Below, piece by piece: positions 23,902 to 53,318 of a DNA stretch of 64,000 nt. Origin of the DNA: Escherichia coli (GTDB lineage Bacteria; Pseudomonadota; Gammaproteobacteria; Enterobacterales; Enterobacteriaceae). The notes under the pieces are model-generated. The model searched no databases, was not told where the DNA came from, and worked only from the letters and a program-made list of their open reading frames with translations. Every line of letters starts with the position of its first letter. Position 1 is the first letter of the stretch. The stretch is taken from the NCBI RefSeq assembly GCF_016026235.1, contig NZ_CP065613.1, one strand, 5' to 3'. Position numbers and translations under genes: made by a program.

Positions 23902-24152
23902 CCCTTTGGCTGGAGGTGAGTCAGTATCCGGAGTTGATAGCGCAGTTTTCAACTGGTAACCAAACACGTATAAAACAAGGATTAATCGCAAAAGCGCCTC
24001 TTGAAGGTTGGCATTATGGATCTAAGGAAATTGTTGAAGAATTCCATATATATCATAGTGTTGCGATTGAATGTGGTGGCGAAATTTATTATATTGATAA
24101 TTAAAGGATTGTTACGTCTCGACTACATGATGAAATTCACTACAGGAGATAA
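23902..24152 (+). pseudogene. Orphan HNH-DNase C-terminal fragment with premature stop (TTA to TAA) before the terminal catalytic His motif
   Basis: WLEVSQYPELIAQFSTGNQTRIKQGLIAKAPLEGWHYGSKEIVEEFHIYHSVAIECGGEIYYIDN-stop, then in-frame RIVTSRLHDEIHYRR. Confidence 0.7.
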
Positions 24153-24448
24153 TGTATATGCATGATTTAAAATATAAAATATATTTTTACACAGAAGGTG
24201 AATTTCTTGAAATGCTTGAGGAGATAGTAAATGCAACTAGCAAAGATAAATCCCTAAAAGGGAAAAAATTAGAAAAATATCTCGATACCTTAGTGGATCA
24301 TTTCATTAAAATTACTGAACATCCTAAAAAGGGAGATCCCATTTTCTATCCTAATTCCCCAGAAGATGGTAAACCTGAAAACATCCTGAAAATCGTCAAA
24401 GAATGGCGGCGTTCGCAAGGATTGCCTTTGTTCAAAGATTCAGAATGA
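24152..24448 (+). CDS. Orphan Im9-like immunity protein (variant 3)
   Basis: 98 aa; conserved C-terminal PENILKIVKEWRRSQGLPLFKDSE, divergent N-terminal half. Confidence 0.8.
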   Translation: MYMHDLKYKIYFYTEGEFLEMLEEIVNATSKDKSLKGKKLEKYLDTLVDHFIKITEHPKKGDPIFYPNSPEDGKPENILKIVKEWRRSQGLPLFKDSE

Positions 24449-24855
24449 ACTCTAAACAGAATCTGTCACCTGAAAATCATCACGTTCTGGTTAAGTGATG
24501 ATTTTCGCTACGAGAAGGTTACGGTGGCGATTGTAGTGATAATAAGCAATGTAAAAAGAAAACATAGGTAAATACTACCTTTCTCTCCTTCCCTGAACAT
24601 TCATTTTACATATTAATTCACATAATTGAATTGTTATGCGTTTTGTTGCTTGGTGAATCGGTTCAGAGGAAATATTTTTTCGTTTCAATTCTGTTAATCT
24701 CACCCCTTGATGGGTAAATTTAACATTTGTGCATAGTTACAACTTTGAAACGTTATATATGTCAAGTTGTTAAAATGTGCACAGTTTCATGATTTCAATC
24801 AAAACCTGTATGGACATAAGGTGAATACTTTGTTACTTTAGCGTCACAGACATGA

Positions 24856-24872
24856 AATTGGTAAGACCAATT
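24856..24872. promoter_or_regulatory. PdhR operator palindrome AATTGGTAAGACCAATT
   Basis: Perfect inverted repeat matching the PdhR box, ~30 bp upstream of the pdhR start. Confidence 0.8.
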
Positions 24873-24903
24873 GACTTCGGCAAGTGGCTTAAGACAGGAA
24901 CTC

Positions 24904-25668
24904 ATGGCCTACAGCAAAATCCGCCAACCAAAACTCTCCGATGTGATTGAGCAGCAACTGGAGTTTTTGATCCTCGAAGGCACTCTCCGCCCGGGCGAAA
25001 AACTCCCACCGGAACGCGAACTGGCAAAACAGTTTGACGTCTCCCGTCCCTCCTTGCGTGAGGCGATTCAACGTCTCGAAGCGAAGGGCTTGTTGCTTCG
25101 TCGCCAGGGTGGCGGCACTTTTGTCCAGAGCAGCCTATGGCAAAGCTTCAGCGATCCGCTGGTGGAGCTGCTCTCCGACCATCCTGAGTCACAGTATGAC
25201 TTGCTCGAAACACGACACGCCCTGGAAGGTATCGCCGCTTATTACGCCGCGCTGCGTAGTACCGATGAAGACAAGGAACGCATCCGTGAACTCCATCACG
25301 CCATAGAACTGGCGCAGCAGTCTGGCGATCTGGACGCGGAATCAAACGCCGTACTCCAGTATCAGATTGCTGTCACTGAAGCGGCCCACAATGTGGTTCT
25401 GCTTCATCTGCTAAGGTGTATGGAGCCGATGTTGGCCCAGAATGTCCGCCAGAACTTCGAATTGCTCTATTCGCGTCGCGAGATGCTGCCGCTGGTGAGT
25501 AGTCACCGCACCCGCATATTTGAAGCGATTATGGCCGGTAAGCCGGAAGAAGCGCGCGAAGCATCGCATCGCCATCTGGCCTTTATCGAAGAAATTTTGC
25601 TCGACAGAAGTCGTGAAGAGAGCCGCCGTGAGCGTTCTCTGCGTCGTCTGGAGCAACGAAAGAATTAG
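24904..25668 (+). CDS. pdhR: Pyruvate dehydrogenase complex repressor PdhR (GntR family)
   Basis: 254 aa from [26 protein letters not shown]...; the ORF track adds 11 upstream codons. Confidence 0.95.
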
Positions 25669-25828
25669 TGATTTTTCTGGTAAAAATTATCCAGAAGATG
25701 TTGTAAATCAAGCGCATATAAAAGCGCGGCAACTAAACGTAGAACCTGTCTTATTGAGCTTTCCGGCGAGAGTTCAATGGGACAGGTTCCAGAAAACTCA
25801 ACGTTATTAGATAGATAAGGAATAACCC

Positions 25829-36967: not shown

Positions 36968-37321
36968 TTAACTCTGAAGCATAGCGGCACGACAGGCGTT
37001 CCAGCCTCTCACCTCTGCAATAGCGGCAACAGCATCAACCGCGTACATGCTAAGAGGATTAGGCATTGGTTTTTCTTCCGGTACTATTGGCGCTGGAGGG
37101 GCGGCGTATACTTCAATTATCCCATTATCAATAGGCCAATCCCCATCCTTGATGTAATCACTTGTGCCATCGACCTGCTGTTCTGCAATGTGGAAAGCAC
37201 CTATCGGCTCTGCTGTCAGCGATGCCAGAGCAATTTCATAAGCACGGCGTTCAACATTGTCTCGCACATCCAAACTGCTGATACGCTCTTTGATTTCTTT
37301 AATCAGTTCTTTGTCGTTCAC
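36968..37321 (-). CDS. Hypothetical prophage protein (DUF551-like)
   Basis: 117 aa ORF. Confidence 0.4.
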   Translation of the reverse strand: MNDKELIKEIKERISSLDVRDNVERRAYEIALASLTAEPIGAFHIAEQQVDGTSDYIKDGDWPIDNGIIEVYAAPPAPIVPEEKPMPNPLSMYAVDAVAAIAEVRGWNACRAAMLQS

Positions 37322-37393
37322 TTATGCCTCCGATTCCCGGATGTCACCCAAATCAACGCTACAATGCCAACCAGTGCAACGAGCGCAAAACTA

Positions 37394-37918
37394 TCAAGCA
37401 TCTCCAACCTCTTTAACGGTAACTGTCTGTGCCTCCAGTTCTGCTATGCGCTTTTCTGAGGCTTCAAGTAACGCCTGCTTATCGCGTAGCGCTTCTTCCA
37501 GTTCAGCAACATGGCATTCACTATCAATAAGGTTGTTCTCTGCTGCTTCCAGCTCAACACGCAACTTCCCTACCGTTAGCGCAATTTCCTCGTTCTCCTG
37601 ATCGCGGCTTTTGATGTATTGCAGGTTTCTTTCCCGTTCATCCAGTAGTGCCAGCGCAACATTTGGATTAAAAGCAGCAATAAATTCAGCGTTTGCATAA
37701 GCCTGAACATCTGTTTCAACCAGGCAGTTAACATGACATTCCGCAATCACACCACCGGGTTCTCCTTTCCATTTTTGACAAACAAAAACTCCTGTTAAAT
37801 TGCCGTGCTGGTTAACAGATGTATGCCCTACGATGTAGCTCCCTTTAGTTGCCTGCTCTGCCGCCTCACGCAGTGCCTGATAGTCAATCTTGCTCACTGG
37901 TTGCCTCCTTTGCGCCAC
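37394..37918 (-). CDS. Ea22-like early-left protein
   Basis: 174 aa with C-terminal coiled coil; DNA in 37440-37640 resembles the lambda ea22 region as recalled. Confidence 0.55.
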
Positions 37919-38071: not shown

Positions 38072-38368
38072 TCAGTCATTACTGGTAGCGCCATAGCGTG
38101 AGCGGTAATTACGCAGGCGCGGGTCGATATATTCAGGGAATTTGTCTATTGTCGCTTTTCGCAACGGTCTCATTGCTGTTTCGTTTGTTCGGTCCTTCTC
38201 CTGTTTTAGCGCGAGTTGTATATCGCGTCGGTACATCCGTTCTGCTTTTGTTTCTGGTTTCAGAGCAAGAAACGCGTCGAAATTGTTTTTGATATTTTCC
38301 AGCACCTCCGCCTTGGAGCTACCGGAGCAGTTGCGCGGGTCATCCGCACCATACAGAGGCGCTGGCAT
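38072..38368 (-). CDS. Hypothetical prophage protein
   Basis: 98 aa ORF. Confidence 0.4.
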
Positions 38369-38391
38369 AATGGGAGCCTTATTTTCAGTAA

Positions 38392-38979
38392 TCAGAAAGG
38401 AGGGTAATCGTTCTGGCTGTAACCATAATCATCTGCATGATTATGGCTTACGTTTTTAGAGCGATTGTCTTTATCTTTGAGGCTGCCAACCATGTTGGCG
38501 ATAGTTTCTGGTTGCTTGCCTTCCGCCTTTTCTTTAAGGGTTTGACCTGTTTGTGCAATAAACGGGATGCGTATTTCCATCTGGTAGCTGTCTGCGCCAG
38601 TCTTTTTGTTTGTGGTTAATACTTTCTGGAGCACTAACCCGATTTTCTTTCCATGAAATTCAGGAGCAACAAATTTACTGGCGGAAACCATATGTTGCGT
38701 TAACTGCTTAATCCCAACACACCCCATCATGGCATGAACGACGTTTGCACCAAACTTGTTTTCCGTTCCGTCATTTTTCTGAACACAAACGCTAAGATAT
38801 TGGATTTTACGTCCGTCGTCGGATTCGCCAGAAAGCTCAATAAATTTTGCGCCTTTTTCTGATTGCTTTAGTTCTGCTTCAGTAATGGTAATGATATGAG
38901 CGCCAGTTTCGTTAATAAAACCACCTTGCCCTGCGGTCAGTGCTGCTTCTTCGTTATAAGTAAAAATCACGTTGCTCAT
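38392..38979 (-). CDS. DUF669-like protein (putative ssDNA-binding partner of Sak4-type recombinases)
   Basis: 195 aa ORF immediately downstream of and overlapping the AAA ATPase gene. Confidence 0.45.
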   Translation of the reverse strand: MSNVIFTYNEEAALTAGQGGFINETGAHIITITEAELKQSEKGAKFIELSGESDDGRKIQYLSVCVQKNDGTENKFGANVVHAMMGCVGIKQLTQHMVSASKFVAPEFHGKKIGLVLQKVLTTNKKTGADSYQMEIRIPFIAQTGQTLKEKAEGKQPETIANMVGSLKDKDNRSKNVSHNHADDYGYSQNDYPPF

Positions 38980-39656
38980 GCGGCGTTTTCCTTAATTTGA
39001 TGAACATTATTGATGCCGTAGTAATCACAAACAGTGGCATCGACGAAAGAGAGATCGTTATCAATCTCATTGGAGTCAAACATTCCCATTGGGGATTTAA
39101 CAGTGTCTGCACCGTTGTTTTTCGTGGTGAAAAAGAACTGGTCATCACGGGTAAGGGTGCGAAGAACTATAGTAAACATGCCTTCGACAGTGATTTTCTC
39201 GTCCAGCATTTTTCCTATAGTTTTCATTTTCACGCGCCCCATAGGGGTTTCTTCGGTGTGCGCAAGAAAATAGACTCTCAGGTCATCTGGCGCATCCTGT
39301 GCAGCCTTAATCACCTCCCATGCGTGGCGGCCTATCTCAGTAAATTTATCAAACGATTTTTCTTCTGAGCGGCGCATAAACTCATTGCTCATCACATACT
39401 GGAAGTCATCAACAATAACGATTCTTTTCCCGTATTCGTGAGCACGCTTAATTACGGCAACTATTACGCCCCATTTATCAGTGGTAACTACGGTTCCTTT
39501 TTTTGCTCTGGCATCCCATGCCAGCCAGTCTTTTGATTTAAATGGCAGCGGCTTGCCTATTGGTTTTATAAGTATTGCTTCCTCTGGATTGATATTTCTC
39601 ATGCTGGTTGATTTTCCGGTGCCAGATTCACCGAGTATTAATGTCGCAGTTCCCAT
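38976..39656 (-). CDS. Sak4-like RecA-fold ATPase (phage recombination/annealing protein)
   Basis: 226 aa with Walker A ILGESGTGKST and Walker B-like IVIVDDF; occupies the position of lambda exo/bet. Confidence 0.6.
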   Translation of the reverse strand: MGTATLILGESGTGKSTSMRNINPEEAILIKPIGKPLPFKSKDWLAWDARAKKGTVVTTDKWGVIVAVIKRAHEYGKRIVIVDDFQYVMSNEFMRRSEEKSFDKFTEIGRHAWEVIKAAQDAPDDLRVYFLAHTEETPMGRVKMKTIGKMLDEKITVEGMFTIVLRTLTRDDQFFFTTKNNGADTVKSPMGMFDSNEIDNDLSFVDATVCDYYGINNVHQIKENAA

Positions 39657-39664
39657 AATTTGCC

Positions 39665-39865
39665 TCAGAATGGTAATTCGGATGGGGTGGAAAGAAATTC
39701 GCGCTCATTCATGCGCTCTCTTTGCGCCTGCCATAAGCAAAGTTGTTTCTTTGATTTATCTCCCGCTTTACGCCAGTAACGAGCCTCAGCAATGTGATAC
39801 TCTCTTTTTAATCGACTTAACTCTGGGGTTTTCGCCAGTTCTACCGGAATCATTTTGACCTCCAT
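39665..39865 (-). CDS. Hypothetical small prophage protein
   Basis: 66 aa ORF. Confidence 0.35.
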   Translation of the reverse strand: MEVKMIPVELAKTPELSRLKREYHIAEARYWRKAGDKSKKQLCLWQAQRERMNEREFLSTPSELPF

Positions 39866-39948
39866 TTTTTATAAGCGTCGACGGCTTCACGAAACATCTT
39901 TTCATCGCCAATAAAAGTGGCGATAGTGAATTTAGTCTGGATAGCCAT
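39850..39948 (-). pseudogene. kil: kil remnant (host-killing FtsZ inhibitor), codons 6 onward; codons 1-5 (MDQTL) lie at 41216-41230 on the far side of the IS600-like element
   Basis: MAIQTKFTIATFIGDEKMFREAVDAYKKW... matches lambda Kil from residue 6; the ATA target duplication rejoins to give MDQTLMAIQTKF. Confidence 0.75.
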
Positions 39949-39992
39949 ATGAGGTGTACTGGCAATAGCGGACACTACCATTTGTTCTTTTT

Positions 39993-40811
39993 TTAAGCAG
40001 CCATCTGATGATATTTTTCCCTGAAGGCTGCCGGGGAGATATTCCCCAGACGAGAGTGACGACGCTGACGATTGTAGAAAATCTCAATGTATTCCCGTAT
40101 TACTGAGATGGCCTCATTCCGGCTCTTAAAACGATAGTGGCTCAGGCTCTCATTTTTCAGCGTTCCCCAGAAGCTTTCCATCGGAGCGTTGTCGTAACAG
40201 TTACCTTTACGCGACATTGATGTTTTCAGACCAGACTGCTCCTGTATGACCCGGTAATCGTATGCGCAGTACTGTGAACCTCGATCGGAGTGGTGGATTA
40301 GCCCGGCAGGTGGGCGCTGGCTCCTGAGCGCCATAAACAGGGCTTTACCTGTCAGCTCTTTTGTCATGCGCTCTCCCATGGCGTAGCCGACAATTTCGCA
40401 CGTATAAACATCTTTGATGCCAGCGAGGTACAACCATCCCTCCTGTGTGGCAACATACGTCAGGTCCGCCACCCAGACCTGATTTGGTGCTGTAGGAGCG
40501 AACGTCTGGTTCAGCAGATTTGGCGCAACTGGCAGATTGTGGTTCGAGTTCGTAGTCGCTCTGAACTTGCGTTTCTGCTTACAGCGTAGCCTTAGCTCCT
40601 TACGAAGACGTGCCAGTCGGTCACGACCAACGATGATGCCATTCTCTGCCAGCTCCGTCTGGAGCCGCCGGGTTCCATATGTTTCGCGAGTGCGGATATG
40701 TGCCACCTTAATCTCCAGTTTTAGCCGCTCATCACTTTGTTTTCTGTCTGAGGGTTCATGCTGTACCCAGTTGTAATAACCGCTCCTGGATACACCAAAT
40801 ACCCGACACAT
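39993..40811 (-). CDS. IS3-family transposase OrfB (DDE)
   Basis: 272 aa rve-domain ORF. Confidence 0.85.
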   Translation of the reverse strand: MCRVFGVSRSGYYNWVQHEPSDRKQSDERLKLEIKVAHIRTRETYGTRRLQTELAENGIIVGRDRLARLRKELRLRCKQKRKFRATTNSNHNLPVAPNLLNQTFAPTAPNQVWVADLTYVATQEGWLYLAGIKDVYTCEIVGYAMGERMTKELTGKALFMALRSQRPPAGLIHHSDRGSQYCAYDYRVIQEQSGLKTSMSRKGNCYDNAPMESFWGTLKNESLSHYRFKSRNEAISVIREYIEIFYNRQRRHSRLGNISPAAFREKYHQMAA

Positions 40812-40846
40812 CGCTTCAATGGGAAATTGTTGTCGCCATTGTTCGA

Positions 40847-41149
40847 TTAACGCGTATTTTTCAGCGACTCCTGTGCAAAATACGCTGTTGCTTTTTTTAA
40901 TATATCTCGCTCAAGGCGAGCTTCATTTAACGCCTTACGCAGTTGCAGAATTTCAGATTCCAGTTCAGCCACCGTGCGGGAACCAGGAGTACCGAGCCCT
41001 TTTCTGGCGGCGGTAACCCATTGTCCTAAAGTGCCTTCAGGAAGGGATAATCGGGAAGCGCCTTCACTGATCGAAAGTTGATTTTCAAGAACCGTTCTGA
41101 CAGCTTCGGCTTTGAACTCTTTAGAGTAACGTTGGGTTTTTCTGCTCAT
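40847..41149 (-). CDS. IS3-family transposase OrfA (HTH)
   Basis: 100 aa MSRKTQRYSKEFKAEAVRTVLENQLSISEGASRL... Confidence 0.85.
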   Translation of the reverse strand: MSRKTQRYSKEFKAEAVRTVLENQLSISEGASRLSLPEGTLGQWVTAARKGLGTPGSRTVAELESEILQLRKALNEARLERDILKKATAYFAQESLKNTR

Positions 41150-41210
41150 TATTAGCTCCTTCTGATGCCATTCTATTTCAGGAAGGAGTGTCCGTTAAAC
41201 TCAGGCTACC

Positions 41211-41363
41211 TCAATAAGTGTTTGATCCATTCTTTGGGACTCCTGGCTGATTAAGTATGTCGATAAGGCGTTTCCATCCGTCACGTAATTTACGGGTGAT
41301 TCGTTCAAGTAAAGATTCGGAAGGGCAGCCAGCAACAGGCCACCCTGCAATGGCATATTGCAT
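41211..41363 (-). CDS. cIII: cIII (FtsH inhibitor), last 4 codons replaced by a stop inside the IS inverted repeat
   Basis: MQYAIAGWPVAGCPSESLLERITRKLRDGWKRLIDILNQPGVPKNGSNTY-stop; lambda cIII continues GYPD. Confidence 0.8.
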   Translation of the reverse strand: MQYAIAGWPVAGCPSESLLERITRKLRDGWKRLIDILNQPGVPKNGSNTY

Positions 41364-41715: not shown

Positions 41716-42042
41716 TCAAATAAGTGGTTTGCTGCCTAATTTCATTTTCTGGCGACCAACACAAGTCACACCCATTTCACTGCGTGGCTTGCTGTACCAT
41801 GTGCGCTGATTCTTGCGCTCAATACGTTGCAGGTTGCTTTCAATCTGTTCGTGGTATTCAGCCAGCACTGTAAGGTCTATCGGATTCAGCGCGCTTTCTA
41901 CTCGTGATTTCGGTTTGCGATTCAGCGAGAGAATAGGGCGGTTAACTGGTTTTGCGCTTACCCCAACCAACAGGGGATTTGCTGCTTTCCATTGAGCCTG
42001 TTTCTCTGCGCGACGTTCGCGGCGGCGTGTTTGTGCATCCAT
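41716..42042 (-). CDS. N: Antitermination protein N (lambda-type)
   Basis: 107 aa MDAQTRRRERRAEKQAQWKAANPLLVGVSAKPVNRPILSL... with arginine-rich motif; the ORF track adds 30 upstream codons. Confidence 0.9.
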   Translation of the reverse strand: MDAQTRRRERRAEKQAQWKAANPLLVGVSAKPVNRPILSLNRKPKSRVESALNPIDLTVLAEYHEQIESNLQRIERKNQRTWYSKPRSEMGVTCVGRQKMKLGSKPLI

Positions 42043-42152
42043 CTGGATTCTCCTGTCAGTTAGCTTTGAGTAACGCGCCGTGATGCTTATCTCCACGGTT
42101 GCTGTCTTGCAGCTGCATTTCGCGCTACTCAAAGCTTTCTGCTTTGAATGCT

Positions 42153-42184
42153 GCCCTTCTTCAGGGCTTAATTTTTAAGAGCAT
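42153..42184 (-). promoter_or_regulatory. nutL (boxB hairpin GCCCTGAAGAAGGGC plus adjacent boxA-like element)
   Basis: On the bottom strand ...gctcttaaaaattaagccctgaagaagggcagc... upstream of N. Confidence 0.75.
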
Positions 42185-42342
42185 CACCTTCAATGGTGGT
42201 CAGTGCGTCCTGCTGATGGCTAAATAGTACGATTTGTACTTTATCGAGTCAATACAAAATGTTCTAAATATAATTAGTTTCTTATAACGCTTTGTATTTA
42301 ATGGGTTTATATTTTGGAAAAAGAAAACCCGACACTAAGGTC

Positions 42343-43768
42343 TAATGCCGATCAGTTAAGGATCAGTTGACCGATCCAGTGGCTGTGTAAGAATCCGGAA
42401 ACGCTCACTTGTTTCCGGATTTTTTTATGCACATTGGACAGGCTCTTGATCTGGTATCCCGTTACGATTCTCTGCGTAACCCACTGACTTCTCTGGGGGA
42501 TTACCTCGACCCCGAACTCATCTCTCGTTGCCTTGCCGAATCAGGTACTGTAACGCTACGCAAGCGCCGTCTTCCCCTCGAAATGATGGTCTGGTGTATT
42601 GTTGGCATGGCGCTTGAGCGTAAAGAACCTCTTCACCAGATTGTGAATCGCCTGGACATCATGCTGCCGGGCAATCGCCCCTTCGTTGCCCCCAGTGCCG
42701 TTATTCAGGCCCGCCAGCGCCTGGGAAGTGAGGCTGTCCGCCGCGTGTTCACGAAAACAGCGCAGCTCTGGCATAACGCCACGCCGCATCCGCACTGGTG
42801 CGGCCTGACCCTGCTGGCCATCGATGGTGTGTTCTGGCGCACACCGGATACACCAGAGAACGATGCAGCCTTCCCCCGCCAGACACATGCCGGGAACCCG
42901 GCGCTCTACCCGCAGGTCAAAATGGTCTGCCAGATGGAACTGACCAGCCATCTGCTGACGGCTGCAGCCTTCGGCACGATGAAGAACAGCGAAAATGAGC
43001 TTGCTGAGCAACTTATAGAACAAACCGGCGATAACACTCTGACGTTAATGGATAAAGGTTATTACTCACTGGGACTGTTAAATGCCTGGAGCCTGGCGGG
43101 AGAACACCGCCACTGGATGATACCTCTCAGAAAGGGAGCGCAATATGAAGAGCTCAGAAAACTGGGTAAAGGCGATCATCTGGTGAAGCTGAAAACCAGC
43201 CCGCAGGCACGAAAAAAGTGGCCGGGACTGGGAAATGAAGTGACAGCCCGCCTGCTGACCGTGACGCGCAAAGGAAAAGTCTGCCATCTGCTGACGTCGA
43301 TGACGGACGCCATGCGCTTCCCCGGAGGAGAAATGGCGGATCTGTACAGTCATCGCTGGGAAATCGAACTGGGATACAGGGAGATAAAACAGACGATGCA
43401 ACTGAGCAGGCTGACGCTGAGAAGTAAAAAGCCGGAGCTTGTGGAGCAAGAGCTGTGGGGTGTCTTACTGGCTTATAATCTGGTGAGATATCAGATGATT
43501 AAAATGGCGGAACATCTGAAAGGTTACTGGCCGAATCAACTGAGTTTCTCAGAATCATGCGGAATGGTGATGAGAATGCTGATGACATTGCAGGGCGCTT
43601 CACCGGGACGTATACCGGAGCTGATGCGCGATCTTGCAAGTATGGGACAACTTGTGAAATTACCGACGAGAAGGGGAAGGGCCTTCCCGAGAGTGGTAAA
43701 GGAGAGGCCCTGGAAATACCCCACAGCCCCGAAAAAGAGCCAGTCAGTTGCTTAACTGACTGGCATTA
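42343..43768 (+). mobile_element. IS4 (1426 bp) with 12-bp target duplication gacactaaggtc
   Basis: Terminal inverted repeats taatgccgatcagttaagga.../...ttaactgactggcatta; identical 12-mer at 42331-42342 and 43769-43780. Confidence 0.88.
42409..43755 (+). CDS. IS4 transposase
   Basis: 448 aa DDE transposase ORF filling the element. Confidence 0.88.
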
Positions 43769-43815
43769 GACACTAAGGTCGGGTTATTGTTGTGTGCTTT
43801 AGAGTAGTGAGGCTG

Positions 43816-44550
43816 TTAACTAAATGTCTCTTCAGGCCACTGGCTGGCGATAACTTTCCCCACAACGGAACAACTCTCATTGCATGGGATCATTGGGTAT
43901 TGTGGGTTTAGTGGCTGTAGAAACACCTGACCACTATCCCTGATCAGTTTCTTGAAAGTAAATTCATCACCACCAAGTCTGGCTATGCAGAAATCGCCGG
44001 GCTCAACAGCTTGCTCAGGGTCAACCAGAATTAACATCCCGTCAGGAAAACTGGGTTTGGAACCTGTTGGTGCGGTCATGGAATTACCTTCAACTTCAAG
44101 CCAAAACGCACAATCACTGGCTTTTTTGGTTGTGCTGACCCATCTCTCCGCATCACCTTTGGTAAAGGTTCTAAGCTCAGGCGAGAACATCCCGGCCTGA
44201 ACATGAGAAAAAACAGGGTACTCATATTGTTTTTTAACGGGGGCAGATGAGTATTCGCCAACAGGTGAAAATGTACCGTCGTGGTTGAATGAGACGTTAT
44301 CAATACCAAGGTATTTAAACACCACACCAATCTCGTCAAGAGATGGATGACGAGATCCGCGCAACCAGTGACCAATTCCACCCTGCGTCATACCAAGCTC
44401 TTCAGCTAACTTCTCTTGAGTTATGCCGAGCTCTTTCATTCTGGATCTAGCCAGTTCATACCATTTCATTTTCATATCCTTATTATTACGCTCTGTACTA
44501 AAACCATCCATGCACAAGATGTATTTTTTGTTTGCATTCCAAAAGTACAT
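43816..44550 (-). CDS. cI: CI-type prophage repressor (HTH_XRE N-domain plus S24 LexA-like C-domain)
   Basis: 244 aa; C-terminal half matches lambda cI ([34 protein letters not shown] ... [10 protein letters not shown]) while the N-terminal DNA-binding domain is unrelated to lambda cI. Confidence 0.85.
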
Positions 44551-44586
44551 ATCGTATTATTGTCTCATGGTTACTATGGAGGGCAT

Positions 44587-44802
44587 ATGAGCAACCTACG
44601 AAAATATCGAGAGTCACTGAATATCTCTCAAACAACACTTGCTAAGGCGGTTGGATGCACACAGGGAGCTATTGGGCATTGGGAATCTGGTCGTCGCTTC
44701 CCAGACCTTAAAACATGCCGCGCTCTTGTTGCATGCCTAAACAAGTTAGGCGCAAAAGTCAGTCTTGATGACGTGTTCCCTCCGGAACACAAAGCCGCTT
44801 AA
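44587..44802 (+). CDS. cro: Cro-like HTH repressor (non-lambda)
   Basis: 71 aa MSNLRKYRESLNISQTTLAKAVGCTQGAIGHWESGRR..., divergent from cI across a ~36 bp operator region. Confidence 0.75.
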   Translation: MSNLRKYRESLNISQTTLAKAVGCTQGAIGHWESGRRFPDLKTCRALVACLNKLGAKVSLDDVFPPEHKAA

Positions 44803-44921
44803 GACATTCCAGCTCTTACACATTCCAGCCCTGAAAAAGGGCATCCAATTAAACCACACCTATGGTGTATGCATTTATTTGCATACATTCAATCAATTGT
44901 TGTCTAAGGAAATACTTACAT

Positions 44922-45290
44922 ATGGTTCGTGCAAACAAACGCAACGAGGCTCTACGAATCGAGAGTGCGTTGCTTAACAAAATCGCAATGCTTGGAACTG
45001 AGAAGACAGCGGAAGCTGTGGGAGTTGATAAGTCGCAGATCAGCAGGTGGAAGAGGGACTGGATTCCAAAGTTCTCAATGCTGCTTGCTGTTCTTGAATG
45101 GGGCGTCGTTGACGACGATATGGCTCGATTGGCACGACAAGTTGCTTCGATTCTCACCAATAAAAACGCCCGGTGTGGCAAACCGAGCGTTCTGAACAAA
45201 TCCAGATGGAGTTCTGAGGTCATTACTGGATCTATCAACAGGAGTCATTATGACAAATACAGCAAAAATACTCAACTTCGGCAGAGGTAA
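44922..45290 (+). CDS. cII: cII transcriptional activator, C-terminus divergent from lambda (possible frameshift)
   Basis: Residues 1-80 match lambda cII (MVRANKRNEALRIESALLNKIAMLGTEKTAEAVGVDKSQISRWKRDW...); the lambda C-terminal EQIQMEF is encoded in another frame. Confidence 0.7.
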   Translation: MVRANKRNEALRIESALLNKIAMLGTEKTAEAVGVDKSQISRWKRDWIPKFSMLLAVLEWGVVDDDMARLARQVASILTNKNARCGKPSVLNKSRWSSEVITGSINRSHYDKYSKNTQLRQR

Positions 45291-46188
45291 CTTTGCCGGA
45301 CAGGAGCGTAATGTGGCAGATCTCGATGATGGTTACGCCAGATTATCAAATATGCTGCTTGAGGCTTATTCAGGCGCAGATCTGACCAAGCGACAGTTTA
45401 AAGTGCTGCTTGCCATTCTGCGTAAAACCTATGGGTGGAATAAACCAATGGACAGAATCACTGATTCTCAACTTAGCGAGTTGACAAAGTTACCTGTCAA
45501 ACGATGCAATGAAGCCAAGTTAGAACTCGTCAGAATGAATATTATCAAGCAGCAAGGCGGCATGTTTGGACCAAACAAAAACATCTCAGAATGGTGTATC
45601 CCTCAAAACGAGGGGGGTTCCCCTAAAATGAGGGATATCCCTCAAAACGAGGGAAAATCCCCTAAAACGAGGGATAAAACATCCCTCAAATTGGGGGATT
45701 GCTATCCCTCAAAACAGGGGGACACAAAAGACACTATTACAAAAGAAAAAAGAAAAGATTATTCGTCCGAGAATTCTGGCGAATCCTCTGACCAGCCAGA
45801 AAACGATCTTTCTGTGGTTAAACCGGATGCTGCAATTCAGAGCGGCAGCAAGTGGGGAACAGCAGAAGACCTGACCGCCGCAGAGTGGATGTTTGACATG
45901 GTGAAGACTATCGCGCCATCAGCCAGAAAACCGAATTTTGCTGGGTGGGCTAACGATATCCGCCTGATGCGTGAACGTGACGGACGTAACCACCGCGATA
46001 TGTGTGTGCTTTTCCGCTGGGCCTGCCAGGACAACTTCTGGTCCGGTAACGTGCTAAGTCCGGCCAAACTCCGCGACAAGTGGACCCAGCTCGAAATCAA
46101 CCGTAACAAGCAACAGGCAGGCGTGACAGCCAGCAAACCAAAACTCGACCTGACAAACACTGACTGGATTTACGGGGTGGATTTATGA
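45250..46188 (+). CDS. O: Replication initiator O (lambda-type)
   Basis: 312 aa, matches lambda O with a 13-aa insertion in the iteron-encoded segment. Confidence 0.9.
   Translation: MTNTAKILNFGRGNFAGQERNVADLDDGYARLSNMLLEAYSGADLTKRQFKVLLAILRKTYGWNKPMDRITDSQLSELTKLPVKRCNEAKLELVRMNIIKQQGGMFGPNKNISEWCIPQNEGGSPKMRDIPQNEGKSPKTRDKTSLKLGDCYPSKQGDTKDTITKEKRKDYSSENSGESSDQPENDLSVVKPDAAIQSGSKWGTAEDLTAAEWMFDMVKTIAPSARKPNFAGWANDIRLMRERDGRNHRDMCVLFRWACQDNFWSGNVLSPAKLRDKWTQLEINRNKQQAGVTASKPKLDLTNTDWIYGVDL
45598..45765 (+). promoter_or_regulatory. ori-lambda: six iteron-like 18-19 bp repeats plus AT-rich region, inside O
   Basis: atccctcaaaacgagggg / ttcccctaaaatgaggga / atccctcaaaacgaggga / atcccctaaaacgaggga / atccctcaaattggggga / atccctcaaaacaggggga then A-rich tract. 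Confidence 0.8.
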
Positions 46189-46886
46189 AAAACATCGCCG
46201 CACAGATGGTTAACTTTGACCGTGAGCAGATGCGTCGGATCGCCAACAACTTGCCGGAACAGTACGACGAAAAGCCGCAGGTACAGCAGGTAGCGCAGAT
46301 CATCAACGGTGTGTTCAGCCAGTTACTGGCAACTTTCCCGGCGAGCCTGGCTAACCGTGACCAGAACGAACTGAACGAAATCCGCCGCCAGTGGGTTCTG
46401 GCTTTCCGGGAAAACGGGATCACCACAATGGAACAGGTTAACGCAGGAATGCGCGTAGCCCGTCGGCAGAATCGACCATTCCTGCCATCACCCGGGCAGT
46501 TTGTCGCCTGGTGCCGGGAAGAAGCATCCGTTACCGCCGGGCTGCCAAACGCCAGCGAGCTGGTTGATATGGTTTACGAGTATTGCCGGAAGCGAGGCCT
46601 GTATCCGGATGCGGAGTCTTATCCGTGGAAATCAAACGCGCACTACTGGCTGGTTACCAACCTGTATCAGAACATGCGGGCCAATGCGCTGACTGACGCG
46701 GAATTACGACGCAAGGCTGCCGATGAACTGACCTGTATGACAGTGCGAATTAACCGTGGTGAGGCGATACCTGAACCAGTAAAACAACTTCCTGTCATGG
46801 GCGGTAGACCTCTAAATCGTGCACAGGCTCTGGCGAAGATCGTAGAAATTAAAGCTAAGTTCGGACTGAAAGGAGCCAGTGTATGA
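46185..46886 (+). CDS. P: Replication protein P (DnaB helicase loader)
   Basis: 233 aa matching lambda P (MKNIAAQMVNFDREQMRRIANN...). Confidence 0.9.
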   Translation: MKNIAAQMVNFDREQMRRIANNLPEQYDEKPQVQQVAQIINGVFSQLLATFPASLANRDQNELNEIRRQWVLAFRENGITTMEQVNAGMRVARRQNRPFLPSPGQFVAWCREEASVTAGLPNASELVDMVYEYCRKRGLYPDAESYPWKSNAHYWLVTNLYQNMRANALTDAELRRKAADELTCMTVRINRGEAIPEPVKQLPVMGGRPLNRAQALAKIVEIKAKFGLKGASV

Positions 46887-47173
46887 CGGGCAAAGAGGCA
46901 ATTATTCATTATCTGGAGACGCACAAGAGCTTCTGTGCGCCGGACGTTGCCGCGCTAACAGGTGCAACAGTAACCAGCATAAATCAGGCCGCGGCTAAAA
47001 TGGCACGGGCAGGTCTTCTGGTTATCGAAAGTAAGGTCTGGCGAACGGTGTATTACCGGTTCGCTACCAGAGAAGAACGGGAAGGAAAGGTGAGCACGAA
47101 CCTGATTTTTAAGGAGTGTCGCCAGAGTGCCGCGATGAAACGGGTATTGGCGGTATATGGAGTTAAAAGATGA
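46883..47173 (+). CDS. ren: Ren (Rex exclusion escape protein)
   Basis: 96 aa matching lambda Ren (MTGKEAIIHYLETHKSFCAPDVAALTG...). Confidence 0.85.
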   Translation: MTGKEAIIHYLETHKSFCAPDVAALTGATVTSINQAAAKMARAGLLVIESKVWRTVYYRFATREEREGKVSTNLIFKECRQSAAMKRVLAVYGVKR

Positions 47174-47243
47174 CCATCTACATCACTGAGCTTGTAACAG
47201 GCCTGCTGGTAATCGCAGGCCTTTTTATTTGGGGGAGAGGGAA

Positions 47244-47522
47244 GTGAACGATAGCTACCGACAGTTTGAAAACTGGTGGTCAAAAGACAAAAGCCAGTTC
47301 ACAGGAGACGATGAATTAAAAGAGTTTGCCTGGGTGATATGGCAGGCATCGCGCTCTGCTATTGAACTGGATATCGACTGGCCCGAATCGAATGACGACT
47401 TTTGGAAAGATGGTGAAGAAGGTGCTTATGCGATGGGTTATGAGGATGGGCGTGACAAAACGGTAATTGCAGTAATGAAAGCCATCAGGGCCGCAGGAAT
47501 CAAAGAAAAGAATTTCGATTAA
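47244..47522 (+). CDS. Hypothetical acidic prophage protein (GTG start assumed)
   Basis: ORF with upstream GGAGAGGG Shine-Dalgarno, inserted between ren and ninB. Confidence 0.4.
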   Translation: MNDSYRQFENWWSKDKSQFTGDDELKEFAWVIWQASRSAIELDIDWPESNDDFWKDGEEGAYAMGYEDGRDKTVIAVMKAIRAAGIKEKNFD

Positions 47523-53162: not shown

Positions 53163-53237
53163 GGGTCAGTCGTATAAAGGTCATTACGGAAGGCTGTTAA
53201 CCTTCTTATCGTGGTTCGAGTCCACGCTGTCCCGCCA
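53163..53237 (+). tRNA. tRNA-like sequence, anticodon GUU (Asn), imperfect acceptor and D stems; possibly degenerate
   Basis: Anticodon arm gaagg-CTGTTAA-ccttc, T arm cgtgg-TTCGAGT-ccacg, 3' CCA; one mismatch in the acceptor stem, weak D stem. Confidence 0.35.
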
Positions 53238-53242
53238 AATAT

Positions 53243-53318
53243 GCTGGTTTAGCTCCAATGGTAGAGCAGTCGCCTTGTAAGCGAATGGGTAGCGGTTCAA
53301 GTCCGTTAACCAGCACCA
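53243..53318 (+). tRNA. tRNA, anticodon UGU (Thr), 76 nt with encoded CCA
   Basis: 7-bp acceptor stem GCTGGTT/AACCAGC, D arm GCTC-CAATGGTA-GAGC, anticodon loop CTTGTAA, T arm AGCGG-TTCAAGT-CCGTT, discriminator A, CCA. Confidence 0.6.

Follow-up and report, generated by a model that had tools for sequence, protein, structure and literature searches.

The immunity region of a prophage in Escherichia coli (contig NZ_CP065613.1) raises the question of how a repressor that shares its C-terminal half with phage lambda comes to carry a DNA-binding domain, and to be paired with a Cro protein, which are not those of lambda, and of whether such a combination amounts to an immunity specificity of its own. 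A sequence-only reading of the locus had proposed a mosaic of this kind, with a distinct immunity, on a lambda backbone. The window, i.e. the whole stretch of DNA that was analysed, comprises 64,000 nucleotides, and the features that bear on the question are collected in the table. The mosaic was confirmed as an observation, and the interpretation placed upon it is partly supported. With a probability of roughly 0.9, the locus is the immunity region of the group formed by VT2-Sakai, the Stx1-converting phage, Nil2, 2851 and phi458, set in a lambda-type early region and operating a standard switch.

Table. Features of the immunity region and its neighbourhood, in window positions, with the basis of each assignment.
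Feature	Position	Strand	Basis and remarks
N antiterminator gene, lambda-type, 108 aa (from MDAQTRRRE)	41716..42042	minus	ORF and blastn
nutL and PL leader, lambda-type	42130..42218	minus	96.6% nt identity to lambda 35496-35583
Predicted PL: TTGACT, 17-bp spacer, TACTAT	42224..42252	minus	consensus scan; overlaps OL1 and OL2
Predicted operator OL1, TAGTACGATTTGTACTT	42225..42241		exact ARTAC-N5-GTAYT match; top PWM score in the window
Predicted operator OL2, CAATACAAAATGTTCTA	42250..42266		annotation transfer, pattern and PWM
Predicted operator OL3, TATAACGCTTTGTATTT	42283..42299		annotation transfer; rank 6 in the 64-kb window with the OR-only PWM
Target-site duplication, 12 bp, left copy, GACACTAAGGTC	42331..42342		sequence
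IS4 element, 1,426 bp, terminal inverted repeats TAATGCCGATCAGTTAAGG / CTTAACTGACTGGCATTA	42343..43768	plus	element ends and empty site
Target-site duplication, 12 bp, right copy	43769..43780		sequence
cI, lambdoid repressor, 219 aa	43816-44475	minus	ATG 44475 (MKMKWYEL); alternative start 44469
cI C-terminal part, residues 84-219 and stop	43816..44226	minus	lambda-type Peptidase_S24 domain
cI N-terminal DNA-binding domain and linker, residues 1-83	44227..44475	minus	non-lambda, HTH_3 type
Predicted PRM	44482..44510	minus	VT2-Sakai (AP000422) annotation transferred by alignment; -10 overlaps OR3
Predicted operator OR3, TATTACGCTCTGTACTA	44484..44500		annotation transfer, pattern and PWM
Predicted operator OR2, ATGCACAAGATGTATTT	44510..44526		annotation transfer and PWM; weakest match
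Predicted PR: TTTGCA, 18-bp spacer, TATTAT	44531..44560	plus	consensus scan; overlaps OR1
Predicted operator OR1, AAGTACATATCGTATTA	44543..44559		exact pattern match; second-highest PWM score
cro, 71 aa, all-alpha HTH_3 type	44587..44802	plus	Pfam PF01381, E 5e-12
Lambda-type right arm: nutR/tR1, PRE, cII, O, P, ren	44809..47245	plus	95.2% nt identity to lambda 38247-40642

The leftward gene codes for a repressor of the LexA/cI type, combining a helix-turn-helix domain (HTH_3, PF01381, residues 11-58, E 1.3e-10 in Pfam) with an S24 peptidase domain (PF00717, residues 87-209, E 7.6e-29), the latter bearing an Ala-Gly site and a Ser/Lys dyad. These residues, Ala94-Gly95, Ser132 and Lys175, align with A111-G112, S149 and K192 of lambda cI within an alignment in which 134 of 136 positions are identical, and the PDB structures that match best are those of the lambda repressor and of its C-terminal domain (3bdn, E 8e-97). 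The open reading frames of cI and cro are both intact. The start codon of cI is likely to be that at 44475 or that at 44469: similarity to the repressor of Salmonella phage g341c starts at MKM(K/N)WY, and the annotators of VT2-Sakai placed the start of the homologous gene at MKWYEL. Two upstream candidates were rejected, namely 44550 (244 aa), from which the longest frame runs, and 44511 (231 aa), the start given by PGAP and Sato; the extension overruns operators OR2 and OR3 and lacks conservation in g341c.

In the cro position, a rightward reading frame of 71 codons starts at ATG 44587. The claim that its product is wholly non-lambda was borne out, as no BLASTP match to lambda Cro was obtained at E<100. 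The closer relative lies within the same locus, where the N-terminal domain of cI and Cro share 35% identity over 62 residues (E 6e-13), and the recognition helix of Cro (TQGAIGHWESG) resembles that of cI. Lambda Cro has an alpha+beta fold; in switches of the 434/P22 style, repressor and Cro are homologous helix-turn-helix proteins which read the same sites. By its predicted fold, the present Cro is of this 434/P22-like class and not of the lambda Cro fold.

The DNA which these proteins would recognise was located by transferring the annotation of AP005153 and AP000422 to the window, followed by a PWM scan. Six 17-bp pseudo-palindromic operators are predicted, with the symmetrised consensus TAGTACAAATTGTACTA and most of the information in the TAC/GTA cores, and the candidate sites coincide with the operators annotated in both records. 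The pattern ARTAC-N5-GTAYT, with at most one mismatch allowed, is matched seven times in 64 kb, which is about the number expected by chance; four of the seven fall within two control regions of 80 bp, and the two exact matches in the window are OL1 and OR1. When the PWM is derived from the OR sites only, OL1, OL2 and OL3 take ranks 1, 5 and 6 in 64 kb, and the reciprocal OL-only matrix places OR1 second and OR3 fifth, with OR2 outside the top 12. Generic repeat finding in OR recovered the OR1/OR3 inverted pair only. A degenerate lambda operator pattern, searched with up to three mismatches, has no match in the region from 42 to 45 kb. Operators had been anticipated on both sides of cI; on the left this held, with sites at 42225-42299, and on the right they lie at 44484-44559 rather than at 44551-44586 as proposed.

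The promoters accompany these sites. The predicted PL agrees with the annotated PL of VT2-Sakai and of the Stx1 phage, and the predicted PR with the one given for AP005153 and AP000422. The predicted PRM stops some 7 nt short of ATG 44475, an arrangement suggestive of a leaderless cI mRNA like that of lambda. We infer the assignment of PL, PR and PRM, and their use, from these correspondences.

Taken together, the domains, active-site residues, operators, segment boundaries and identity to known phages are those from which we infer a standard lambdoid bistable switch, the occupancy of its operators included. The XRE-type helix-turn-helix domain of cI (residues 1 to about 70) would read the six operators, three over PL and three over PR/PRM, and the lambda-type C-terminal domain would supply dimerisation together with cooperative contacts between dimers. 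Repressor dimers, bound cooperatively at OL and OR, would then keep PL and PR repressed and autoregulate PRM, and Cro would bind the same operators and shut PRM. The near-identity to the lambda C-terminal domain points to RecA-dependent autocleavage; RecA-stimulated self-cleavage at Ala94-Gly95, by Ser132 and Lys175, would part the two domains and lead to prophage induction.

The genes surrounding this cassette are of the lambda type, as had been claimed for N, cII, O and P (about 94-95% nt identity). Positions 41741-42068 match lambda N at 93.9% (blastn), position 42218 corresponds to lambda 35583, adjoining the PL start, and the elements N, nutL, nutR, cII, O, P and ren are 94-97% identical to those of lambda. 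The O gene contains six iterons, and PRE with the cII binding site (TTGC-N6-TTGC, at about 44930-44945) lies within the lambda-type segment. The notion of a lambda backbone holds for part of the prophage only. By blastn, int-xis is 98%, the kil-cIII fragments 100%, N 94% and cII-ren 95% identical to lambda, but lambda type does not extend to the nin, Q, lysis and head regions: the nin/Q/lysis region shows scattered short lambda matches only, and the structural genes show essentially none, being closest to those of phi458 and mEp460-type phages. There is no rexA or rexB; next to cI come a terminator hairpin and, beyond it, OL, the order seen in E. coli 2015C-4136CT1.

The prophage has also suffered damage. 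An IS4 element (transposase ORF 42409-43755; NCBIfam transpos_IS4_1, 303.7 bits) has split the cI-distal terminator hairpin, AACCCGAC-ACTAAG-GTCGGGTT, one half of which is the left copy of the target-site duplication; the uninterrupted site is found in E. coli 2015C-4136CT1. An IS3-family element disrupts kil/cIII, and in alignment cII is frameshifted after residue 80. The host prophage is decaying and, in view of these three lesions, probably defective, and its switch may no longer matter biologically. The region could accordingly be regarded as a non-functional relic, whose switch goes unused in a defective prophage, a view that concerns its present-day use rather than its identity and that the same IS4, IS3-family and cII lesions favour. 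We consider it unlikely, since the cI and cro frames are uninterrupted, cI lies only two residues from that of the plaque-forming phage phi458, none of the six operators or of the PL, PR and PRM matches is damaged, identity to phi458 being 100% between the N-terminal domain and the end of cro, and defective prophages commonly keep a working repressor.

Whatever its present use, the structure of the locus is sharply divided with respect to lambda. When the whole window was used as a blastn query against NC_001416, positions 43822-44226, the 3' 405 bp of cI, matched lambda 37233-37637 at 93.6% nt identity. The encoded residues 84-219 follow lambda cI almost residue for residue, as had been noticed, with 134 of 136 identical from Tyr84 onwards; the exceptions are Cys122 in place of Ser and Ser219 in place of Gly. 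Over residues 1-83, by comparison, 19 of 83 positions (23%) are identical, and the helix-turn-helix core alone is detectably related to lambda (26 aa, E 1e-7). The non-lambda character of the N-terminal domain was therefore upheld, although its length is 83 residues and not the approximately 95 first given. Positions 44227-44808 gave no blastn alignment to lambda, and a forced alignment yields 41-46% identity. The joint does lie inside cI, as proposed: the step falls at 44226/44227, i.e. codon 83/84, where, over a few bases, nucleotide identity of about 96% gives way to a random level, and it is situated in the inter-domain linker, 10 residues before Ala94-Gly95. Outside the repressor gene, lambda homology ends at the PL start (42218) and restarts 6 bp past the cro stop (44809).

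Such a boundary is sharp far beyond chance and does not have the form of gradual divergence. A difference in rate, whereby the N-terminal domains of cI and cro have merely evolved faster than the C-terminal domain with no recombination involved, would find a precedent in the known diversification of phage repressor DNA-binding specificities, and in g341c, whose cI is more diverged in its N-terminal domain (56% identity) than in its C-terminal domain (79%). It is nevertheless very improbable, because nucleotide identity, which reflects mostly synonymous sites, holds at 93.6% up to 44226 before becoming random within a few bases, and the flanks N and cII-P stand at the same level of lambda identity, about 94-95%. 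Lambda Cro and the Cro encoded here differ in fold class and show no similarity that could be detected, and in phage PDP110P1 a third type of N-terminal domain precedes the lambda C-terminal domain, with its breakpoint elsewhere.

The cI protein is 97.7% identical to that of AP005153 and AP005154 (five residues differ from AP005153), 99.1% identical to that of phi458 (two residues differ) and 97.2% identical to that of VT2-Sakai, the last of which was matched in the protein search and is absent among the DNA-search matches listed. Expressed separately for the N- and C-terminal domains, identity is 23%/99% for lambda, 96%/98% for the Stx1 phage, 100%/99% for phi458 and 96%/97% for VT2-Sakai. 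Cro is identical at 71 of 71 residues to the Cro of AP005153 and to that of phi458. All three marks of the group, i.e. cI over its whole length, Cro and the set of six operators, were found in the window. The sequence-only reading had named whole-length identity to a single known immunity type as its refutation, and cI and cro do match one known type along their entire length.

The joint with lambda is a property of the group as well. In nucleotide alignments, the Stx1 phage, VT2-Sakai and phi458 all have it at codon 83/84, which indicates that it was inherited and not made in this prophage. In the phage collection, 63 records reach at least 95% identity over the N-terminal domain, and 63 reach it over the whole of cI; as totals, these equal counts fit a constant pairing of this N-terminal domain with a lambda-type C-terminal domain. 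The 987-bp cI-cro region occurs in 101 phage records at 93.6-97.8% identity, 62 of them with at least 80% coverage, and, at 80% coverage or more, in about 775 of 5,426 complete E. coli genomes, out of roughly 1,200 E. coli genomes that have a match; it adjoins a lambda-type cII-O-P in 341 complete E. coli genomes. Among the complete E. coli genomes and phage records, none exceeds 97.8% identity over the 987 bp. Among the phage records with the region are AP005153 and AP005154, respectively the Stx1-converting phage and Stx2 phage II of O157:H7 Morioka V526, together with Nil2, 2851 and many O157 'PA' phages; phi458, Dewey, Louie, ev017 and ev207, which also have it, are non-Stx phages.

The relationship to lambda had been described from the other side. 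Smith et al. 2012 (PMC3430580) reported that the carboxy terminus of lambda CI, and not its amino terminus, is common with the "CI2c" type, that the amino terminus of lambda CI is unique, and that cro4 is common to 1717, Stx2 II and VT2-Sa; the group described here is their 'CI2c + Cro4'. A survey in BMC Genomics in 2022 placed lambda CI and the proteins of this group together in CI 'Clade I' (PMC8951638). In electrophoretic mobility shift assays (EMSA), lambda CI bound the VT2-Sakai operators only at 3.7-6.4 uM, compared with 0.2-3 uM for its own (PMC10742460), a difference consistent with distinct operator specificity. The repressor, cro and operator set is thus already known and widespread, and its relationship to lambda is published. 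That this prophage should itself be a new recombinant, with an unseen immunity specificity on a lambda genome, is hardly credible, even if comparison with lambda alone gives the look of a fresh hybrid and identity over the 987 bp stays at or below 97.8% in complete E. coli genomes and phage records: Cro is 100% and cI 97-99% identical to several sequenced phages, the joint sits at the same nucleotide in those phages, cI-cro with a lambda cII-O-P occurs in 341 E. coli genomes, and the lambda relationship of this cI type has been in print since 2012.

Membership of the group carries consequences for immunity. Compared with their VT2-Sakai counterparts, the operators show one to three differences per site, mostly at central or edge positions, and the TAC/GTA cores are kept; as the differences from the Stx phages are mostly so placed, homoimmunity with VT2-Sakai-type phages is likely. 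The host cell is probably immune to phages of the VT2-Sakai/Stx1-phage immunity group.

The boundary at codon 83/84 is the trace of an old exchange within the inter-domain linker and is common to every member of the group. Within the C-terminal domain the history is more intricate. Compared over this segment, the window, phi458, the Stx phages and lambda stand at about the same distance from one another, with 92-95% nt identity. Over 44080-44226 the window is identical to phi458; over 43957-44062 it agrees with the Stx-phage allele, and phi458 there agrees with lambda. This patchwork of tracts implies further breakpoints inside the shared domain. In the Lambdavirus PDP110P1, a third N-terminal domain is found on the lambda C-terminal domain, with the joint lying deeper. 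On these alignments, the shared domain behaves as a homologous recombination handle for immunity cassettes and continues to act as a place of exchange between cI alleles, which fits the classical modular view and is not new. The cI of g341c is a full-length relative, with 56% N-terminal and 79% C-terminal identity, and the ST64T-like C2 proteins share about 54% identity in the N-terminal domain; these proteins suggest a long-standing association of the N-terminal domain family with related S24 domains.

The locus illustrates cleanly how phage repressors exchange modules where two domains meet, but, the relationship having been published, it counts for little as a discovery. Its importance in practice is modest; the widely shared lambda-type C-terminal domain provides homology for the movement of cassettes between lambda-like and Stx-converting phages. 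A nearly identical domain of this type is present in thousands of lambdoid prophages whose N-terminal domains differ, those of the lambda, VT2-Sakai and PDP110P1 types. The patchwork of breakpoints is compatible with frequent contact of such alleles in one cell. A doubtful, though conceivable, consequence of the shared domain is that co-resident prophages form mixed cI dimers or oligomers, and thereby couple their induction thresholds or weaken their mutual immunity. Were such cross-talk to occur, a defective non-Stx prophage could modulate VT2-Sakai-type Stx phages or immunise its host against them.

Among known systems, VT2-Sakai (AP000422), AP005153, AP005154, Nil2 and 2851 resemble the window in the architecture of cI and in its lambda joint. 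Across this Stx-phage group, cI is 97-98% and Cro 100% identical to the proteins encoded here, the six operators occupy equivalent positions and keep the same conserved bases in their half-sites, and the layout of PL, PR and PRM is the same. The DNA of OR is 84.7% identical between the window and the Stx phages, the changes falling mainly at central and edge operator positions. The two differ in their surroundings: the Stx phages have a non-lambda N, an HK022-like cII/O and a different P where the flanks of the window are lambda-type, and they carry extra ORFs between cI and OL, whereas in the window cI is followed by the terminator and OL.

A closer counterpart is phi458 (OP434518), the DNA of which is 100% identical to that of the window from the N-terminal domain of cI through cro. 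The same lambda-type cII-O-P-ren arm is present in phi458, in the related non-Stx phages Dewey, Louie and ev017/ev207, and in the prophage of E. coli 2015C-4136CT1, which also has the same compact N-OL-terminator-cI order, without IS4. Matches to phi458 cover 58% of the window between 39 and 64 kb, at 93.5% identity. The likeness is looser in the C-terminal domain, where DNA identity to phi458 is 94.8% and the window is a patchwork of Stx-like and lambda-like tracts, and between cI and OL, where phi458 has a 1-kb ORF and the window carries IS4.

Lambda itself shares with the window tripartite OL and OR regions, divergent PRM and PR, a cI ATG about 9 bp from OR3, the type of N, nut sites, PRE, cII, O and P, and the cleavage site and catalytic residues of the repressor. 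The operators are of the form TAGTAC..GTACTA in the window and of the TATCACCGC type in lambda, spaced at 25-33 bp and 23-24 bp, respectively; lambda has rexA and rexB, which the window lacks, and an alpha+beta Cro in place of the all-alpha HTH_3 protein predicted here. The lambda imm434 and imm21 hybrids embody the same concept, an immunity cassette substituted into the early region of lambda, and in them the right boundary lies just past cro and the left boundary at PL/OL. Unlike those laboratory hybrids, the arrangement in the window is natural, and it leaves the lambda cI C-terminal domain in place.

A complete IS4 lies beside the repressor gene cI of the prophage, bounded by a 12-bp target duplication, GACACTAAGGTC, and its point of insertion is the loop of the terminator hairpin directly downstream of cI; the prophage of E. 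coli 2015C-4136CT1, a relative with a compact N-OL-terminator-cI arrangement, holds the same terminator site uninterrupted. A second insertion, of 1,264 bp, carries an IS3-family transposase (ORF 39993-40811; family match 335 bits) and is bordered by segments corresponding to lambda 33228-33316 and 33314-33480, each 100% identical and overlapping one another by 3 bp. Since it lies between these two segments, both kil and cIII are disrupted. To the right of the repressor, the cII reading frame shifts past residue 80 relative to both lambda and the 2015C-4136CT1 prophage, from which it differs by the loss of one base in an A-run and by a small insertion, and a 45-residue out-of-frame tail, overlapping the start of O, stands in place of the final 17 residues.

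Features of the prophage and its left junction
Feature	Coordinates	Detail
Left end and junction	32780-34169	left end at 32791
Insertion with IS3-family transposase	39950-41213	1,264 bp
IS4, complete	42343-43768	1,426 bp
Target duplication	42331-42342 and 43769-43780	12 bp, flanks IS4
cII, frameshifted	44922-45290	aligned with lambda and the E. coli 2015C-4136CT1 prophage
Replication origin within O	45597-45721	six iteron-like 19-bp repeats

At the left end, a 98% match to lambda begins inside the attP core (lambda 27727) and takes in int and xis. The flanking host genes are pdhR-aceEF-lpd and a truncated yacH-like ORF. This flank is the pdhR-aceEF-lpd region rather than gal-bio, and the junction core, TTATCAGTAAGTTGACA, is unlike that of lambda, which suggests that the prophage integrated at a non-canonical site or that a rearrangement took place. 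The host flank (24000-32807) shares 99.9% identity with E. coli FDAARGOS_943, whose genome has many matches to the query, scattered over 31 places; with other E. coli the identity is about 98-99%. Among 5,426 complete E. coli genomes, none carried a cI-cro region more than 97.8% identical. Together with the IS load, these matches hint that the host is Shigella-like or rich in IS elements.

The phage also carries two tRNA genes, Asn-GTT and Thr-TGT (53163-53318); directly downstream of them is a short segment matching lambda between Q and S. The solved structure nearest to Cro (44587-44802) is PDB 28tn, an 82-aa 'lambda repressor-like protein' (E 4.5e-17; residues 1-69 aligned), and this Cro family therefore has a structural template. 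The replication region also departs from lambda, with an O protein of 312 aa rather than 299 aa, and an origin whose iteron-like repeats exceed the four of lambda by two.
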